Source: a virus
Lineage: Duplodnaviria > Caudoviricetes
IMG/VR virus record: IMGVR_UViG_3300036798_000368
Coordinates: 1 to 39,611 of that record
Reading direction: 5' to 3' (one strand)
DNA: 39,611 nt
Both the position numbers and the translations under genes were made by a program. The notes under the pieces are model-generated. The model had not been told where the DNA came from. It worked only from the letters and a program-made list of their open reading frames with translations, and did not search any database. Of the stretch, positions 4,707 through 36,260 are shown piece by piece (position 1 is the first letter of the stretch; every line of letters begins with the position of its first letter).

Positions 4707-4936
4707 CCGACGAAGTCCTCGATTTCCTCCGCGAGAAATTTACCCGCCTCGATAACCGCCTCGATCGCATCGAGCTGCGTTTGGGAGAGGTAATCTTACG
4801 CCTCGGCCAACTGGAGCGCGATATCGCATCGATCAAGGTCGATCTTGCGAACCTGCAGACGCGCATGGATAATTTCGACCAGCGCCTGGCCCGGGTCGAG
4901 CGCCGGCTCGATCTGCAAGAAGCCGAAGAAAAATGA
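4703..4936 (+). CDS. Small coiled-coil protein
   Basis: Heptad pattern LDNRLDRIELRLGEV...LARVERRLDL; GGAGG RBS; ATGA overlap. Confidence 0.75.
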   Translation: MTDEVLDFLREKFTRLDNRLDRIELRLGEVILRLGQLERDIASIKVDLANLQTRMDNFDQRLARVERRLDLQEAEEK

Positions 4937-4963
4937 GCCTCAAATTTTTCGGTTAGTTTACCG

Positions 4964-4992
4964 TTGAAAGACACGGCGGCTGCGGCTATAAG
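4964..4992 (+). promoter_or_regulatory. Sigma70-type promoter
   Basis: TTGAAA-N17-TATAAG upstream of the Pro-rich gene; hairpin CGCCCGC-GATTCT-GCGGGCG at 4998-5017. Confidence 0.55.
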
Positions 4993-5043
4993 CGAATCGC
5001 CCGCGATTCTGCGGGCGCAATCCCCCAACAAAAGGAGCACTAC

Positions 5044-5562
5044 ATGGCAGGGCGTCAGGTCATGATCATCGGCGAAATGTTTGACCCAAGCCTCAGCGTC
5101 GGCGGCGGCCCCGTCTATCCGCCTCCCGGCGTCCCGACACATCCGATCGCCCCAGGCGGTCCAGCGTGGTGGCCCGGAAGCCCGCCGCATCCCATCCCGC
5201 CGACCGTATGGCCGACGCCGCCAGGAGGTGGCACGGTCCCTCCGGGTTTCTGGGGAGGCGTCGCGCCGCCACATGTCGATATTGGCTTTCCCAGCCCGCA
5301 ACCCGGCCCGTCACACCCGATCGTGCTGCCGCCGGGAACACCGAAGCCGCCACTGGGCATATGGTCTGAGCCGATCCTGCCGCCGGAAATCTGGGGGCCG
5401 AACGATCCTCGCCCGACCCAGCCGATCTACATTTGGGGCGATCCGATCAAACCAGCAGAAAAGCCCGAAATTTTGGACTGGCACGCGGGATGGTCTATTC
5501 GGACCGGCTGGGTAATTTTTGCCGTTCCGAACGTTCCGGCACCGACCCCAAGTAAGGCCTGA
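5044..5562 (+). CDS. Proline-rich protein with PxHPI-type repeats
   Basis: AAGGAG RBS; PTHPIA, PPHPIP, PSHPIV, PTQPIY; ends tail-to-tail with the holin. Confidence 0.75.
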   Translation: MAGRQVMIIGEMFDPSLSVGGGPVYPPPGVPTHPIAPGGPAWWPGSPPHPIPPTVWPTPPGGGTVPPGFWGGVAPPHVDIGFPSPQPGPSHPIVLPPGTPKPPLGIWSEPILPPEIWGPNDPRPTQPIYIWGDPIKPAEKPEILDWHAGWSIRTGWVIFAVPNVPAPTPSKA

Positions 5563-5856
5563 CTACTCGTCCTTTTGCCCCTTGAAATACATCGCGACGA
5601 TCGCTGAGAACGCCGCAATCAGGGCGCCGACCAGGATATCGCCGCCTTCCGACACCTTGCCGACGAACATGTAGGCGATCGTGCTTATGAACGCGACGAC
5701 AATCAAAAACGCCATGAAGTCGCGGGTCGGGACGCGGAACGCCGGCCCTTGGCGGATCGCTTGATAGACCAGCAACATGATGAACCCGACGATCAGGATC
5801 ATCCCGGCGATCGCGGCCGGCCCGATCGGCAACGGCTTCAGCGCCATCTCGTCCAT
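5563..5856 (-). CDS. Putative holin (3 TM helices)
   Basis: Three hydrophobic segments and a charged C-terminus KGQKDE; downstream of the endolysin; two Met codons (MDEM). Confidence 0.6.
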   Translation of the reverse strand: MDEMALKPLPIGPAAIAGMILIVGFIMLLVYQAIRQGPAFRVPTRDFMAFLIVVAFISTIAYMFVGKVSEGGDILVGALIAAFSAIVAMYFKGQKDE

Positions 5857-5875
5857 CGCTAGGCGCCCCCTTTCC

Positions 5876-5950
5876 GCCACGGCACAACACGGCACTCCAC
5901 ATCACCGCACAACACGGCACAATACTGCACTGCACATCACGTCACAACAT
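5876..5950 (+). repeat. Array D: 15 x NN-CAC pentamers (putative stand-alone guide RNA)
   Basis: GCcac GGcac AAcac GGcac TCcac ATcac CGcac AAcac GGcac AAtac TGcac TGcac ATcac GTcac AAcat; strict 5-bp phase. Confidence 0.9.
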
Positions 5951-6138
5951 CACTTGCTTTTCCCGCGCATGGACCCCTTTCCCGAAGGCGCCGTCCGGCT
6001 GGCCGCGACTTGCCGCGGCGTCGAGGGCGAGTGCGCCTTGCTCGACGTCGGCGCGGCGTGCGCGCACATGTCGTTGACCGGCTTCGAATTCACCGCGGGC
6101 TTGGCGTAATGGTCGGGCTTGTCGGTGAGTTTAGGCAA
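5950..6138 (-). CDS. Small basic hypothetical protein
   Basis: AAAGGA RBS then TTG overlapping the lysozyme stop; ends ...SGKGSMRGKSK*. Confidence 0.55.
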   Translation of the reverse strand: MPKLTDKPDHYAKPAVNSKPVNDMCAHAAPTSSKAHSPSTPRQVAASRTAPSGKGSMRGKSK

Positions 6139-6574
6139 TTTCGATTCCTTTCTTGAACATCGCATATTCCTTCCGCCGCCGCCCCTGAATCTCCGGCGGC
6201 TTGTTCCAAAACAAAATGGCTTCCGCCGCGCTTAGATGGTCGCCAGCATTGAGCCGCTTGACGACGGTCGAGCTCTTGAAGCCGCCGGCGCCGATGTTGA
6301 AGGCCAGCGACACCAGCGCGTCGAATTGCATTTGCGAGATCGGTACCGTGACAGATTCATTCACCGCCTTTTCGAAATGCGCAAGATCGCGCGCCAAAAT
6401 CTCGTGCTCCTCGTCCCGTGTGATGGTCATCCCCGCACACGGCACCGGCGGGCTGCCGGCCTTCGCCGAATGGCCGATGCCGATCGTCCAGACCCCGACC
6501 GAGTCCTTGTAGGCGGTCAGCCTCGACCCCTCAACCTCGATCAGGTGCTTGCGTCCGGCAAGGCTCATATGCAT
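6131..6574 (-). CDS. Endolysin, GH24 phage lysozyme
   Basis: E-x8-D-x5-T catalytic triad (EGSRLTAYKDSVGVWT); FDALVSLAFNIG; GRRRKE. Confidence 0.93.
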   Translation of the reverse strand: MHMSLAGRKHLIEVEGSRLTAYKDSVGVWTIGIGHSAKAGSPPVPCAGMTITRDEEHEILARDLAHFEKAVNESVTVPISQMQFDALVSLAFNIGAGGFKSSTVVKRLNAGDHLSAAEAILFWNKPPEIQGRRRKEYAMFKKGIEIA

Positions 6575-27807: not shown

Positions 27808-28512
27808 TTAGAATCCTTGTGCGTTGCCGGGCTCGATCGGCCATTTCGGCATCTGATCGATCGCCGCTTGTTGGCGGTCGGCGGCCATCTTGTCCATGGT
27901 CGCGCCGTGTTGCATCAACGCCTCGGCGCCTTTTTGCTGATGGTCGCGGGCATCGGCGGCGATCTTCATCCGCAGCTCGGCGAGCTTGGCTTGGCTCTCG
28001 GCGATGATCTGTTGCAGCTTGGCGGCCGCTTCTTGCTGGCCGGTTTGTGAATCCATTTGCGCCTTCGAGATTTCCGCCTGCGTTTTGGCTTGCGCCGCCT
28101 GCAATTTCACATTCTCGGCCTGGACCTTGGGATCGGCGCCCTTTTGCGCCATCGCCTGTTGCATCGCCTGCGGCGACGACAATTTGTCGGCGGTCTCTTC
28201 GATCACCTCTTCGAGCTCGCGGCCGACGCGAAAAGCCCTTACCCCGAACATCAACAATTGCCCGGCGAGCGGCGCCAGCTCCGGCTTCTGCATGACCATC
28301 GGCCCCCACGCCTCGAGGAACTTGGTCATCGATTCGATAAATTGGGTTCTATCCTGCTTTTCCCGGCTCTCGTCGCCGACGATCGTCGAATCCGTCTCGA
28401 TCTCGATCTTGAACCGCCGCAGCAGATTGTTCTTGAGCAGGCCAAACACATCCTCTTGGGTCGGAGTCTGACCGATCGGGGGGTGTCCGGTCGCCGGCAG
28501 CGGGGGAAGCAT
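27808..28512 (-). CDS. Portal protein, C-terminal part (separate ORF)
   Basis: LLRRFKIEIETDSTIVGDESREKQDRTQF plus a Gln/Ala coiled coil; own GAGGAG RBS. Confidence 0.7.
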   Translation of the reverse strand: MLPPLPATGHPPIGQTPTQEDVFGLLKNNLLRRFKIEIETDSTIVGDESREKQDRTQFIESMTKFLEAWGPMVMQKPELAPLAGQLLMFGVRAFRVGRELEEVIEETADKLSSPQAMQQAMAQKGADPKVQAENVKLQAAQAKTQAEISKAQMDSQTGQQEAAAKLQQIIAESQAKLAELRMKIAADARDHQQKGAEALMQHGATMDKMAADRQQAAIDQMPKWPIEPGNAQGF

Positions 28513-28525
28513 TATCGCTCCTCGA

Positions 28526-30373
28526 TCATCGTGGGCCAGCCCCCATTGCGCCGCTCGCCGGAACGGCGGCCGGCGGTCCCGCGCCGAGTCCCGGCCGGAT
28601 GGGCAGCGGCGGCCGCTGAGTCGGCGTCGGAAGCCCCGGCGCCGGCGCCGGGCTCGGCGCTGTGGGATCGGCGGCGGCCATTTGCAGGTGGCGCTGCGCC
28701 GCGAGATGGGCGAGCATCAAAGTGAGCCTGCTCGGCAATTTCATGTTGCTCATTTCCATGACCGTCGCCGGCGCGCAATATTGGGCGATGATCTGTCCGA
28801 CCAGCCTAGCGATGTCGCGGCAAAATCTCGCGATCTCGGTCTGCCGGTCCTTGATCCGCGTGCCGCCGTATTGCGCTTTGAGTTGCTGCGCCCCCTCGGT
28901 TTCCTGCGGATCGGTGGCGCCGCGCATGATATCCGAGATTCCGATGATCTGGTAGACGTCCTCAACCAATTGCTGGCGCAGCTTGATGCATCCTTCGAGC
29001 ACCGAGATCACTTGCTCGACCGGGACCCACACGATCGGCGCCGCCTTGCCGCCGCCGCCTTCCAGGAATTGCGAAAATCCCTGCACCGCGATCAATTTGT
29101 TCTCGAACCCTGGCGACATCGCCTTTTCGATCTCCGGCGAACCCTCGCCCTGCGGTCCGGCCGGATAGAAGCCGACGAGCTTTAAGGCGTCCGACAGGCC
29201 GCCGATCCGCGCCGTCAATTGATCGATCTCCTCGGCCTGATCTTGATAGAACACGAAGTCCGGCACCGGCACCAAGCTATCCGGCGACAACGTCCCATAG
29301 GCCGGTCGCGGGCAGGGATAAAATCCGTCGAGCTCGAGGTAAGGCTTGCCGCTTTCCAGGATTTCTGGATAGCCGGGCGACACCCACAGCACCTCGTTTT
29401 TCGCCTTGTCCCAGACCTCCCAGACCGCCGCCTTGCGGACCTGGCTGGCGCCGGCGGCGGTGCCCCGCTCGTCCTCGTCGGCCAATGGGTCGGCATCGAG
29501 GGCGATCTCCTTGCCGACCTTGGCGCCGAACCGCTTGGTAATTTCGGCCCGCGTCATATAGGCCCGGAACGCGACCCATTGGCACTCCGACCAGACCCGC
29601 GCCGGTTGATGCCGAAAATCCAATCGTTGGACGAACCTTATTCTGACATTCTCGAATTTGATCTTGCGCGGACTGCTTCCCGGTCCGCAGGGCTCATCGC
29701 GATCAGCTCCCGGGCGCGCGCCTGGAACAGCTCCAATTGCGCCTTGACCGCCGGGTAATCCGGGCATCCCGATGCCGCCAGCTCCTCCGCCAAGAGTTCC
29801 CAGAACACCGAGTCCGGGTGGTAAAATTCCGCCTCCTCCAAGGCCTCCAGCAAATCGGTCACCCGCGTTTCCGCCTGCTTGAGGAAGACCAGGGTTTTCC
29901 GGTCCTTGAATGATGCTTTCGGCACCTGAAATATCCTCGATCTGATCGTCCTCGGTCTCATATTCCGGCTCATAGTAAACTCTTGCGACGCCGCGCGCGT
30001 AGAGCAGGAAATCGTCGCGGACCATCTTGAACTCGGTGTCGAAGTCGGCGGCGTCAAAGGAAAAATTCACCGCCCGCTCGAGCACCTCGCCGGCTTGCCG
30101 GGCGATCGGGTCTTGATCGCGGTAGCGGCGCGACACCACGGCATGCGGCGGCTTGGCGTAGATCGCGCTCTGCATGGTCTGGACGTTCGACCACAACATC
30201 TGATATTTGCGGATTCTGACCAGCGCCGAGCCCTCGTAGAGGTAGCGCCGGCGGATGATCCGGCAGCGCTCCTCATAGCGCGACATCCCATCGTCCCTGC
30301 GGGAGTCCTCGAGGCGGGAGAGCCAGGTCCCGACGTCGTCGCTCGGGCAAAGATCGTTGTCATTAGCAGCCAT
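28526..30373 (-). CDS. Portal protein, N-terminal part
   Basis: LWSNVQT...YAKPP...VSRRY.D.DP; FYPCPRP..GT...PVPDF..YQDQA.EID.LT.RI; IIGISDIMRG; follows terL. Confidence 0.85.
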   Translation of the reverse strand: MAANDNDLCPSDDVGTWLSRLEDSRRDDGMSRYEERCRIIRRRYLYEGSALVRIRKYQMLWSNVQTMQSAIYAKPPHAVVSRRYRDQDPIARQAGEVLERAVNFSFDAADFDTEFKMVRDDFLLYARGVARVYYEPEYETEDDQIEDISGAESIIQGPENPGLPQAGGNAGDRFAGGLGGGGILPPGLGVLGTLGGGAGGIGMPGLPGGQGAIGAVPGARPGADRDEPCGPGSSPRKIKFENVRIRFVQRLDFRHQPARVWSECQWVAFRAYMTRAEITKRFGAKVGKEIALDADPLADEDERGTAAGASQVRKAAVWEVWDKAKNEVLWVSPGYPEILESGKPYLELDGFYPCPRPAYGTLSPDSLVPVPDFVFYQDQAEEIDQLTARIGGLSDALKLVGFYPAGPQGEGSPEIEKAMSPGFENKLIAVQGFSQFLEGGGGKAAPIVWVPVEQVISVLEGCIKLRQQLVEDVYQIIGISDIMRGATDPQETEGAQQLKAQYGGTRIKDRQTEIARFCRDIARLVGQIIAQYCAPATVMEMSNMKLPSRLTLMLAHLAAQRHLQMAAADPTAPSPAPAPGLPTPTQRPPLPIRPGLGAGPPAAVPASGAMGAGPR

Positions 30374-31722
30374 TATGCCCGCTCCCGCCTTTCCCGCTCC
30401 CGGTTGCCATAGGCGACATAATCACCGATCGTCAGCTCCTCGGTCGGAATGAACAGCGGCTTTGGTTCCGGCGTGATCTCCTTGCGGATCATTTTCCAGG
30501 CCATCGCCAAATACCGAAAAGCATCGGCGCCGTGCGAGGCCCAATCATGCTCGGCGACGTCCCGGAACACTCTGAGCCGCTCACTCCAATCCTGCCGGTA
30601 TTGGCGCAGCGCCTCGAGCCCGGCGGCGCACCTCTGGGCGTTGAACTTGGCGATTCTCAAGGTCATCTTGGCGGCATTGATCCCATCGTCGACGCTATGT
30701 TTTGGCACCAAACAAGGCTTCCGCCCGGCGGCGCGCAAGGTCTCCACCCTTGTCCGCCCGGTCTCGAACGAATGCACCTTGGCGTCGTGCGGCAGATAAT
30801 CGAATCCGTCATAGCCCAATTGGGTCAATTTGGCGATATAGTCGTCGAAATAATACCCTTGGACCTGGATGAAATCATGGATGAGCGGGCCGCGCTCACC
30901 GACCTGGAACGCCCAGATCGCCATGTTCGAGCCGTTGCCCAAGTCCCAGGCGCAATGCATCGGCGCCGGCAGCACCGGCAGATCGTCGACGAGGCGCCCC
31001 TCGATCTCGGCCTGCTGCATGTCCTTGCCGTAATAGGCGCCGAGAATCGCGGCATAGGGATCGCATTCGAATTCGGCGGCATAGGCCTCCGGCGTCATCA
31101 GGCGGCGCGCGTCCTCAAGCTCGGCCTCCGGCACGACGCCGGTCTCCGAGGCCTTCAGAAGCAGCGAGAACCAGGCCGGATCATGGGCGACGTTTTTGTA
31201 GAGTTGCCACAATTGGTTGCGGCCCTTGATCGTGCCGATGATCGTGGCAAAGCCGCCGCGGTCGGCGAGCATCGGCCGGATGATCTGGGTCCAGAGAGAC
31301 GGCGCGATGTCGGCGAATTCGTCCAAAACCGCGCCGTCCGAATAGGGGCCGCGCAAGGCGTCCGGATTGTCCGCCCCGAACAGGGTAATCCTAGAGCCGC
31401 CGAGGAGATCGACTCTGAGCTCGGCGATGTTCGGCGGGCAGGCCTGGACCGGCGCGGTGAATTGGGTGAGATAGTCCCACGCCACCGTCTTCGCCTGGTT
31501 GCGCAACGGCGCGATGTAGTGGAACCGCCCGGCCGGCTTTTTGAGGTCGAGGGCGAAATCGATCAGGTCCATCAGGCTCGCCACCGTCTTGCCGCTGCGC
31601 CGATGGGCGATCATGCAGGCCCAGCGTTGGGTGCGATGGTGGAAACCGCGGAAGATCTGGCGCGGCTGGTAGCCGAGCTTAATCTGCGGGGTCGGGGGAA
31701 TCACGGCGGTCTTACTTTCCAC
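30373..31722 (-). CDS. terL: Terminase large subunit
   Basis: Walker A HRRSGKT, Walker B AVLDE, nuclease WDLG...PHD...SHGADAFRY. Confidence 0.93.
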   Translation of the reverse strand: MESKTAVIPPTPQIKLGYQPRQIFRGFHHRTQRWACMIAHRRSGKTVASLMDLIDFALDLKKPAGRFHYIAPLRNQAKTVAWDYLTQFTAPVQACPPNIAELRVDLLGGSRITLFGADNPDALRGPYSDGAVLDEFADIAPSLWTQIIRPMLADRGGFATIIGTIKGRNQLWQLYKNVAHDPAWFSLLLKASETGVVPEAELEDARRLMTPEAYAAEFECDPYAAILGAYYGKDMQQAEIEGRLVDDLPVLPAPMHCAWDLGNGSNMAIWAFQVGERGPLIHDFIQVQGYYFDDYIAKLTQLGYDGFDYLPHDAKVHSFETGRTRVETLRAAGRKPCLVPKHSVDDGINAAKMTLRIAKFNAQRCAAGLEALRQYRQDWSERLRVFRDVAEHDWASHGADAFRYLAMAWKMIRKEITPEPKPLFIPTEELTIGDYVAYGNRERERRERA

Positions 31723-32904: not shown

Positions 32905-33214
32905 ATGCCGTGTCGTGTTGTGGGGTGCAGTGTCGTGGGGTGAAGTGCCGTGTCGTGGGGTGGGGTGATGTGATGTGTGATGGGGTGTTGTGCCGTGTCG
33001 TGCTGTGGGGTGTCGTGTTGTGAAGTGATGTGAAGTGCTGTGCGGTATAGTGATGTCGCGTGGGGTGCTGTGTGGTGATGTGGGGTGCAGTAGCGTCCTG
33101 TGTTGTGTTGTGGCGTGCGGTGTCGTGTGGGGATGTGGGGTGGCGTGCGGTATCGTGGCGTGGGGTGCAGTGCGGTGGCGTGCTGTGAAGTGACGTGGCG
33201 TAGCGTGGCGTGCT
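32905..33214 (-). repeat. Array C: 62 x NN-CAC pentamers (putative guide RNA array)
   Basis: GTGNN on + strand in unbroken 5-bp phase over 310 bp; starts 4 nt after the RAMP stop. Confidence 0.92.
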
Positions 33215-33811: not shown

Positions 33812-34116
33812 GTGTTGTGACGTGCGGTGCAGTGAAGTGGAGTGCTGTGGGGTGCAGGGCCGTGTGGTGCTGTGTTGTGCCGTGGCGTGACGTGCCGAGT
33901 TGTGTCGTGCCGGGTCGTGCCGCGATGTGCAGTGACGTGGGGTGACGTGAGGTGCGGTGCTGTGGCGCGATGTGCAGTGCTGTGATGTGGCGTGATGTGA
34001 TGTGGAGTAGAGTGTGGTGCGGTGTGTTGATGTGATGTGGAGTGGCGTGAGGTGCCGTGACGTGAGGTGCCGTGCAGTGTCGTGCGGTAAGGTGCAGTGC
34101 AGTGCAGTGGCGTGAG
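33812..34116 (-). repeat. Array B: 61 x NN-CAC pentamers (putative guide RNA array)
   Basis: Unbroken 5-bp phase over 305 bp; ends directly in the RBS of the RAMP gene. Confidence 0.92.
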
Positions 34117-34126
34117 GGGAGAATCA

Positions 34127-34336
34127 TCATGGCGAAGGATCCTCCTCCGGATCGAGCGCATCCGCCCCGGTCGGCTCGAGGAGCCGCGTCAGGATCGCGA
34201 CCACCGCCCGGTCGACATCGCGCTCGAGCCCTTTCGCCCGGGTCAGGCCCTCCATGCTGCGCTCGCGAAAATATTCCTTCTGGGCATCCCGCATGCGGCG
34301 CACCAGCAGCGCCAAATCCCGTAGCTCGGTGTTCAT
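34127..34336 (-). CDS. Small helical hypothetical protein between arrays A and B
   Basis: LVRRMRDAQKEYFR...AKGLERDVD. Confidence 0.65.
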   Translation of the reverse strand: MNTELRDLALLVRRMRDAQKEYFRERSMEGLTRAKGLERDVDRAVVAILTRLLEPTGADALDPEEDPSP

Positions 34337-34360: not shown

Positions 34361-34525
34361 GTGTTGTGTCGTGCAGTGCCGTGCCGTGACGTGCCGTGGT
34401 GTGATGTGACATGTTGCGACGTGACGTGGCGTGAGGTGGCGTGGAGTGGAGTGCGGTGCGGTGCCGTGGCGTCCTGTGATGTGCTGTGGGGTGCGGTGCG
34501 GTGCAGTGTTGTGATGTGACGTGAT
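34361..34525 (-). repeat. Array A: 33 x NN-CAC pentamers (putative guide RNA array)
   Basis: Unbroken 5-bp phase; starts 15 nt after the terS stop; followed by AATAGGAG. Confidence 0.92.
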
Positions 34526-34540
34526 GAAAAGCGGGCATCG

Positions 34541-34876
34541 TCAGGATCGAACTCCGGTCAAAACGTTGACGATTATCGTTTGCCGCGGGTCGCTGCTATC
34601 GCCGTCGAACGGCGCCGGCCTTCCCCAGGCATAGGCCAGAACATCCCGACACGCCGCCGCGCGCACCGTCTCGACCTTGGCATGGAGTGCCAACCTAATA
34701 AGTTCCGCCGCCACCTTCGGCGCCGCGTCGATCGCGAGCTGACGCCCTAGCCGCTCCGAGAGCTTGCCGAGCGGCCGGCCGCCCTTCTTGCCGTTTTCCG
34801 CCGAGGCCTTGGCCTTGGCCGCCGAGGCGCCTTCGAACGGCTTAAAATGCCGCGTTCCGGGCAGGCTTCCGGTCAT
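34541..34876 (-). CDS. terS: Probable terminase small subunit
   Basis: ENGKKGGRP, ELIRLAL.AK.ETVR.AA...AWGRP, C-terminal IIVNVLTGV; first late gene, upstream of terL once the insertion is removed. Confidence 0.6.
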   Translation of the reverse strand: MTGSLPGTRHFKPFEGASAAKAKASAENGKKGGRPLGKLSERLGRQLAIDAAPKVAAELIRLALHAKVETVRAAACRDVLAYAWGRPAPFDGDSSDPRQTIIVNVLTGVRS

Positions 34877-35564: not shown

Positions 35565-36260
35565 TCAGGTCTCCTTTGGCACCTTGGCGCCAAACAGCTG
35601 TTTGGCGGCGGGCGAAAATTGCACCGGCTGGTCGCGATAGGCGGCGAGCTTCGCCTCGTCGAGCGCCGGGATGGTCGCGTCTCCATTGCCCGGCCGATCT
35701 CTGGCCTTTTTCGCCTTGCTTTGCGCGCTAGCCCGCCTCTCCAGCGGGCGCGGCGACGCGCGCGGCATTCTGGTAGAAAGATTCAGATTAGACTCTGGTT
35801 CTGGTAGTGGGGGGAAATTTTGCTTGGATTTTTGCTTGAAATTTTGCTTGGATTTTGCTTGAGGTTTTGCTTGAGGTTTTGCTTGGCGCACCACCGTTGA
35901 TTTTATTCCACCTTCCCGCCCAGATGCCACCCTTTCCCTGGCTTTTTTCAGCTCACGTTCTACGCGATTATGGCGCCACATTCCGATGGGGTTATCGGGG
36001 GGTATATCGGGGGGTATATCGGGGGGTATATCGGGGGGTATATTCTCAAAGTACCCTTCCAGAAATGGCCGTAAGCGCTTCCATTTGTTGACATGCACGC
36101 GAACCAGCCTAGCTAAAGTTTTATCGTCGGAAAAAAGAGGGCCACCGTTTGTCCAATAGGAATCAATTAGGCGCCGATAGGCCCCGTCTTGTTCAAGCGA
36201 AAGGGCCATCGTGTCGCGCAAATAATCGCCCGGATAAAACGGGAAATGATTGAGGCTCAT
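35565..36260 (-). CDS. DUF1376/YdaU-type replication initiator
   Basis: FPFYPGDYLRDTMALSLEQDGAYRRLIDSYW..GGPL; internal iterons. Confidence 0.82.
   Translation of the reverse strand: MSLNHFPFYPGDYLRDTMALSLEQDGAYRRLIDSYWTNGGPLFSDDKTLARLVRVHVNKWKRLRPFLEGYFENIPPDIPPDIPPDIPPDNPIGMWRHNRVERELKKARERVASGREGGIKSTVVRQAKPQAKPQAKSKQNFKQKSKQNFPPLPEPESNLNLSTRMPRASPRPLERRASAQSKAKKARDRPGNGDATIPALDEAKLAAYRDQPVQFSPAAKQLFGAKVPKET
35818..35885. repeat. 6 x TTTTGCTTG iteron-like repeats (candidate origin)
   Basis: Copies at 35818, 35830, 35842, 35853, 35865 and 35877. Confidence 0.75.
35993..36040. repeat. 4 x 12-bp tandem repeat TATCGGGGGGTA
   Basis: Perfect tandem copies encoding IPPD x4. Confidence 0.85.

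Follow-up and report, generated by a model that had tools for sequence, protein, structure and literature searches.

The pentamer arrays of the phage genome described here are best read as guide RNAs of the VIPR type, built on a CAC scaffold and predicted to pair with two bases and skip the third along double-stranded DNA, the matches found lying in codon phase, probably because guides in phase keep fitting the drifting genes of rival phages; we give this reading a probability of about 0.7. The underlying rule, two bases read and one skipped with the skip on the wobble base, held in unbiased searches across related loci. It is not new, being already in print for VIPR, whose skipped bases fall overwhelmingly at the wobble position, an alignment that would defeat synonymous escape (10.64898/2026.04.26.720920); the original prediction had made the same argument, that third-position synonymous changes would be tolerated. 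The less-known part is the targeting of rival alleles of the gene beside the array, on which no statement was found in four 2026 VIPR preprints, three of them available in part (10.64898/2026.04.26.720927, 10.64898/2026.10.15.759431, 10.64898/2026.10.21.760802); what is said below of these three and of PMC2988022 refers to the parts available.

The locus and its VIPR-type components

The window, that is, the whole stretch of 39,611 nucleotides analysed, is a whole phage record (39.6 kb) with a terminal overlap of 127 nt, and carries terL, portal, capsid, lysozyme, RecT and integrase genes. It holds four arrays of a fixed CAC triplet followed by two variable bases (NN), three of which (A, B and C) lie between the putative terS and terL, around ORFs of 192 and 165 amino acids (Table 1). 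Sequencing run X1, which may be the source of the window itself, confirms the arrays. The terS ORF had no Pfam or PHROG match, and a promoter scan returned 0 sites. Elsewhere in the window, the portal family phrog_12082 matches two adjacent ORFs (28526-30373, profile 20-491; 27808-28512, profile 508-708), two 12-nt tandem repeats inside a DUF1376 ORF (35814-35885 and 35988-36043) are possibly replication-origin iterons, and a proline-rich ORF on the + strand (5062-5562), without Pfam or PHROG match, adjoins the membrane-protein-like ORF that flanks array D.

Table 1. Positions of the arrays, the VIPR-type genes and their neighbours in the window.
Feature	Position	Strand	Remarks
Array D, 15 CAC/NN units	5876..5950	+	27 kb from vipr
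62-aa ORF after lysozyme gene	5950..6138	-	5965-5982 matches array D 12/12, in phase
Terminase large subunit (terL)	30373..31722	-	Downstream boundary of the VIPR-type locus
Accessory gene, vap-like, 165 aa	32390..32887	-	Predicted N-terminal winged helix and helical tail
Array C, 62 units	32905..33214	-	32920-32959 antisense to GQSGNPSG (DUF5681) coding motif
Vipr-like stand-alone RAMP (Cas7/Csm3 fold), 192 aa	33219..33797	-	Fold matches
Array B, 62 units	33812..34121	-	Pentamer array
69-aa ORF	34127..34336	-	Homolog directly follows terS in L081
Array A, 33 CAC/NN units	34361..34525	-	Directly after terS; absent at corresponding site of relative L081
Guide segment of array A, 11 CAC/NN units (20-30 of 33)	34371..34425	-	Matches terS 3' ends through stop codon, codon phase
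Putative terS (terminase small subunit)	34541..34876	-	Named by position upstream of terL; self site 34541-34573

The arrays, the RAMP-fold gene and its partner likely constitute a VIPR-type system, an RNA-guided silencer of DNA. Of 526 candidates, 371 proved homologous to the 192-aa protein, whose structure model (pLDDT 94.2) matches the RAMPs of the Cas7, Csm3 and Cmr type (best E 2.6e-7; Z 12.2, rmsd 2.7 over 150 residues). As in VIPR, this RAMP-fold protein stands alone, has a size of about 20 kDa and is not encoded in a CRISPR-cas locus; no CRISPR-type repeat family was found among the 20 largest repeat families of the window. No published Vipr structure was among its fold matches, the comparison with published Vipr gave one weak tblastn match in the phage collection, and the protein matches phrog_4652, a family of unknown function (E 5e-10). 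An accessory (vap) gene is likewise present, since the 165-aa neighbour belongs to a conserved family with homologs in 20 other vipr loci; its model is confident in the N-terminal domain and of low confidence beyond residue 100, and the best fold matches of that domain are winged-helix regulators, all weak (best E 0.037), with no nuclease among them.

Related vipr loci numbered 137 (80 viral, 56 from genomes, and the window), and arrays were called in 101 of them with our own array caller. The flanking pentamer arrays of VIPR, a fixed triplet plus variable NN, are found in the window, on a CAC scaffold instead of the canonical GGY. Across the loci the scaffolds were CGC, GGC, CAC and GAC, nearly all on the vipr-sense strand, GGC being dominant in 16 of 87 related loci; because GGC on that strand fits the canonical GGY, the RNA of the window likely reads CAC/NN. 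The VIPR literature accepts alternative, non-GGY scaffolds (10.64898/2026.04.26.720920, 10.64898/2026.10.21.760802), and CAC/NN arrays have been catalogued beside Vipr-like folds (10.64898/2026.10.21.760802). In VIPR, 9-16 repeats are followed by a conserved 3' tail. Short repeated tails occur in the relatives, 143 of 288 arrays ending in AA, and the arrays of the window are long and unbroken. Arrays B and C are the longest of the 288 (median 12 units) and lack a repeated internal tail; their non-CAC units recur at a spacing of about 4-15 units and might be guide boundaries. Two loci (L024, 14627-15785; L052, 14077-14293) combine CGC arrays beside vipr with GGC arrays about 4 kb away.

Skip length and codon phase across related loci

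The original prediction held that the NN pairs fall on codon positions 1-2 in three segments. These phase calls proved correct; a trio found by translation cannot show enrichment, and the accompanying caveat, that translating NNx favours in-phase targets, was right. In the unbiased gapped search, 288 unique arrays (362 before identical ones were merged, minus-strand arrays of related loci being dropped) were compared on both strands, at skips of 0-3, with 2.96 Mb of non-array DNA, a pool without loci L095-L179 and L314 onward, which had been fetched by guide pattern or were off-target; codon phases were assigned afterwards from our own simple gene caller. Six arrays reached a best score of at least 17 at skip 1, against 1.0 after shuffling and 0, 0 and 1 at skips 0, 2 and 3. 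All eight matches scoring at least 16 skip codon position 3 (five sense, three antisense), compared with 15/40 in the shuffled set, about four matches at this score being expected by chance. At scores of at least 14 there was no excess (52 vs 46.5) and the phases were close to the shuffled mix (position 3 in 20/52 vs 172/465), and no guide of the window scored 16 or more in the pool search.

The homologs of the genes flanking the arrays gave a similar picture, with 7 of 278 arrays matched, array A to L081 among them, against 0.5 after shuffling and 0 at other skips; all seven matches skip position 3. In a control with non-flanking genes, which searched less DNA (11.6 vs 19.6 kb on average), 1 of 254 arrays was matched. 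Three related CGC-scaffold loci (L007, L021, L023) account for six of the seven flanking-gene matches, whose independence is therefore low, and the sets of eight and seven strong matches overlap. At the level of the clade, then, the 1-nt skip of VIPR was recovered in silico, mostly in CGC-scaffold loci plus array A, and among the strong matches the skip falls at codon position 3 as is general for VIPR.

Besides the caveat on translation, a second bias was found: in diverged database relatives most differences lie at position 3, which makes out-of-phase guides less likely to be detected. Between the window and L081 the identity of terS at codon positions 1, 2 and 3 is 86%, 91% and 61%. The skip-1 code could accordingly be real and the wobble alignment a matter of ascertainment, guides arising in any phase and only those in phase still matching diverged relatives. 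This was simulated by placing perfect guides in all phases on seven gene pairs, with self-to-relative divergence as a proxy and matches treated as independent. At 40-80% amino-acid identity, 90-96% of the detectable perfect guides were in phase despite equal phases; across the seven pairs the chance that a detected match is in phase was 0.35-1.00, with 85-100% for two vipr-targeting pairs and 0.58-0.80 for the window's own pair, which is weak evidence alone. Three matches to close relatives, for which this chance is only 0.35-0.43, are all in phase nonetheless, and after correction the joint chance of seven in seven was P 0.014-0.029. The same position-3 bias was found in published work on E. 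coli (10.64898/2026.04.26.720920, 10.64898/2026.10.15.759431), where wobble alignment is seen in nearly 90% of the orphan guides that target vipr (10.64898/2026.10.15.759431). Ascertainment as the whole cause is thus unlikely; the phase effect survives bias correction, modestly.

Candidate targets of the arrays in the window

The segment of array A at 34371-34425 had been delimited correctly, comprising exactly 11 units, and its NN string on the vipr-sense strand is GT GT AA GT AT AC GG GT GG GG TG. Of its 22 read bases, 17 agree with the terS end of the window itself (34573-34541; best core 13/14), the skipped base being codon position 3; with the terS end of L081 the agreement is 19/22, through the stop codon, a result equalled by 3 of 3000 shuffles. 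The segment is thus predicted to fit terS best as rival phages carry it, better than the allele of its own genome. L081 shows the empty site: its terL is 94% identical to that of the window, and terS is followed by 18 nt and then the homolog of 34127-34336, without an array in between. Further along, in place of the VIPR cassette of the window, L081 carries an ORF of about 520 amino acids between the small ORF and terL (4887-6446). Four of ten terS homologs end in IVNVITGVRG, agreeing with the guide where the own allele differs; judged from these protein ends, such alleles would give a match of about 20/22. Sequencing run X2, which may be the source of the L081 stretch, contains that stretch unchanged together with contigs like the window's terS/array edge, vipr and accessory gene, and array-less and window-like phages therefore occur within one run.

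Wider scans were also made with this guide. The extended array-A pattern matched 0 viral contigs and, at 2 mismatches, one of four records scanned, that of L081. An exact 8-unit scan of viral contigs gave 85 matches, all with at most 3 agreeing bases among the following 6; 55 of the 85 belong to one unrelated family and, although in phase, read mostly K for N, and the set was rejected as targets. The latter substitution illustrates that the claim of the original prediction that the guide effectively recognises a peptide motif was overstated: two-base prefixes are read, not amino acids, which merges N/K, I/M, D/E, H/Q, F/L and C/W and splits Ser, Leu and Arg. A metagenome scan with terS returned 37 loci that essentially share a short KKGG motif and was set aside, and among 401 genomes of a Beijerinckiaceae-centred family terS had two matches, neither with the target end.

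Within the window itself, a self search with 9-unit windows at 15/18 or better gave 16 matches at skip 1 and 12, 4 and 15 at skips 0, 2 and 3, that is, no skip-1 excess. The genome-wide best was 13 for array A, not at terS and reached by 3 of 60 shuffles, and 12 for array D, reached by 4 of 60. Within 250 nt of the array, A and D were significant (P=0.006 and P=0.003; 1500 shuffles each), arrays B and C gave nothing (P 0.88 and 0.97) and no other skip was significant. The self matches of A and D are at or near chance genome-wide and draw their significance from lying beside their targets, a proximity prior that is post hoc for this window and recurs in related loci, where 7 of 273 arrays have such a self match within 250 nt against 0.33 expected (21-fold); six of the seven skip position 3 and one (L043) skips position 1.

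This proximity would also be expected if the matches were footprints of guide origin, copied from the DNA beside the array and drifting since, and not weapons against rivals. In 7 of 9 strong matches examined a self homolog does lie 12-321 nt from the array, yet in all seven, as for array A, the relative is matched better than self (24/24 vs 18/24 and 27/28 vs 19/28, for example), and copying alone predicts no codon phase; such an origin as the full account is rather improbable.

Array D reads 12 of 12 bases of the adjacent 62-aa ORF over 6 of its 15 units (5982-5965), position 3 being skipped. The array (5876-5982 region) lies on the strand opposite the late genes, with the site just 3' of it in inverted orientation, and read-through RNA would consequently carry both the guide and its complement. 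This perfect self match and the 13/14 core of array A could suggest that the guides are autoregulatory, tuning the phage's own terS and lysis-region gene by partial self matches. That is very improbable, since the full guide of array A matches self at 77%, published controls were without self matches at 80% or more (10.64898/2026.04.26.720920), and the one homolog of the gene beside array D ends in RKGKG, which fits the guide units at places where self does not. An 8-unit scan with array D gave 12 chance-like matches in short or unrelated frames, which were rejected.

For array B no target was found in the near-array self search with shuffles. The segment of array C at 32920-32959 spells G-Q-S-G-N-P-S-G on the opposite strand only, and no site was found for it in its own genome (best 13/18). 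Eight of its units matched at least 120 stretches of viral contigs among the matches listed (about 230 estimated), against 15 at skip 2; 33 of 40 matched ORFs scanned (the first 43 of 98 distinct, minus three near-duplicates) passed the DUF5681 cut-off, and the GQSGNP match is a common motif of that domain. We take DUF5681 proteins to be terS-like, an assumption partly backed by ten matched loci with a window-type terL downstream. Upstream of 89 terL relatives the GQSGNP segment reached 14/18 at best, with no site, and no rival was found for array C; because it was chosen for translating to a known motif, this segment cannot test phase. No perfect DNA target was seen for any guide of the window in the viral-contig scans of the array-A and array-D patterns, nor for array B. 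An action of the arrays on mRNA, or a role of the arrays in encoding peptides, with the phase reflecting translation and not DNA recognition, is hardly credible: arrays B and C do overlap stop-free reading frames of 109-146 aa, but the strong matches lie on both gene strands, array C is antisense to its motif, and published VIPR binds double-stranded DNA (10.64898/2026.04.26.720920, 10.64898/2026.04.26.720927).

Proposed mechanism and relation to known systems

A RAMP-fold gene, NN-variable pentamer arrays and skip-1, in-phase matches on both strands of genes were found. By analogy with published VIPR, in which a filament on the RNA sequesters the triplet and every third target base is flipped by the thumb and helical bundle (10.64898/2026.04.26.720927), Vipr subunits would coat the RNA, hide each fixed triplet and flip out every third base of the target; transcription would be blocked, with the accessory protein presumably binding DNA without cutting. 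The period of three would then be fixed by the protein and the phase would not, being set by selection or by the origin of the guide. VIPR silences transcription on either strand, and targets placed in a 5' UTR were silenced (10.64898/2026.04.26.720920); because the published skip is set by protein geometry and 5' UTR targets are silenced, phase would be a matter of guide persistence and not of the reader. The 34371-34425 guide may be directed at the 3' end of terS in related phages, array-less ones included, and the carrier's own allele would be spared by its additional mismatches. More tentatively, at somewhat less than even odds, arrays of the CAC/CGC clade may be placed beside the gene that they police, with the rival allele as their in-phase target, here the terS stop region of array-less relatives. 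If so, neighbour-gene targeting would amount to RNA-guided marker exclusion, with the logic of homing endonucleases and without the nuclease, and would offer a handle on how vrRNA guides arise.

Published type II VIPR (Escherichia phage SUSP1, a Pseudomonas fulva prophage; 10.64898/2026.04.26.720920, 10.64898/2026.04.26.720927) shares with the window a phage-borne stand-alone RAMP of about 20 kDa, NN-variable pentamer arrays, the 1-nt skip at the wobble base, targeting of both strands, an accessory gene with a predicted DNA-binding fold and targets in rival phages. The window differs from it in its CAC scaffold in place of GGY, its arrays, which run unbroken for 33-62 units (clade median 12) and in which no repeated internal tail was seen, the position of arrays between terS and terL, and one array 27 kb from vipr. 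The non-canonical CAC/NN and GAC/NN arrays of 10.64898/2026.10.21.760802 have the same scaffold as the window and lie next to Vipr-like folds; the parts available name neither targets nor a skip rule for those clusters, whereas skip 1 and phase were tested computationally here. The locus adds computational support for extending the skip-1, wobble-aligned code to non-GGY scaffolds, as well as a measured detection bias for which any phase test on databases must correct.

Free-standing homing endonucleases of T-even phages (PMC2988022) act from an insert on the rival's nearby allele in co-infection, as is proposed here; unlike in those systems, no nuclease fold was found, recognition would be RNA-guided and the outcome, by analogy, silencing and not cutting. 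The guide at 34371-34425, its own terS and array-less L081 provide a concrete pair for studying whether one co-occurring phage silences a packaging gene of another in an allele-specific way. In the contest of SUSP1 VIPR with satellites and solo vrRNAs (10.64898/2026.10.15.759431), wobble skipping likewise serves as escape-proofing, guides are directed against the vipr genes of rivals, and vrRNA-targeting guides score lower on self than on non-self, as here; the SUSP1 target is a satellite recombinase, whereas the targets described here are homologs of the array-adjacent gene (the terS end, the lysis-region ORF).

Two further observations concern the related loci. A 12-unit guide of L023 (4832-4906) matches 995-1030 of L251, a contig fetched by terL homology, at 24/24 (HYTAHPSGVECI), with 18/24 for its own upstream homolog. 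In L007 (7731-7785) and L023 (1364-1463), guides located directly after vipr aim at the G-rich 3' end of vipr in rivals.
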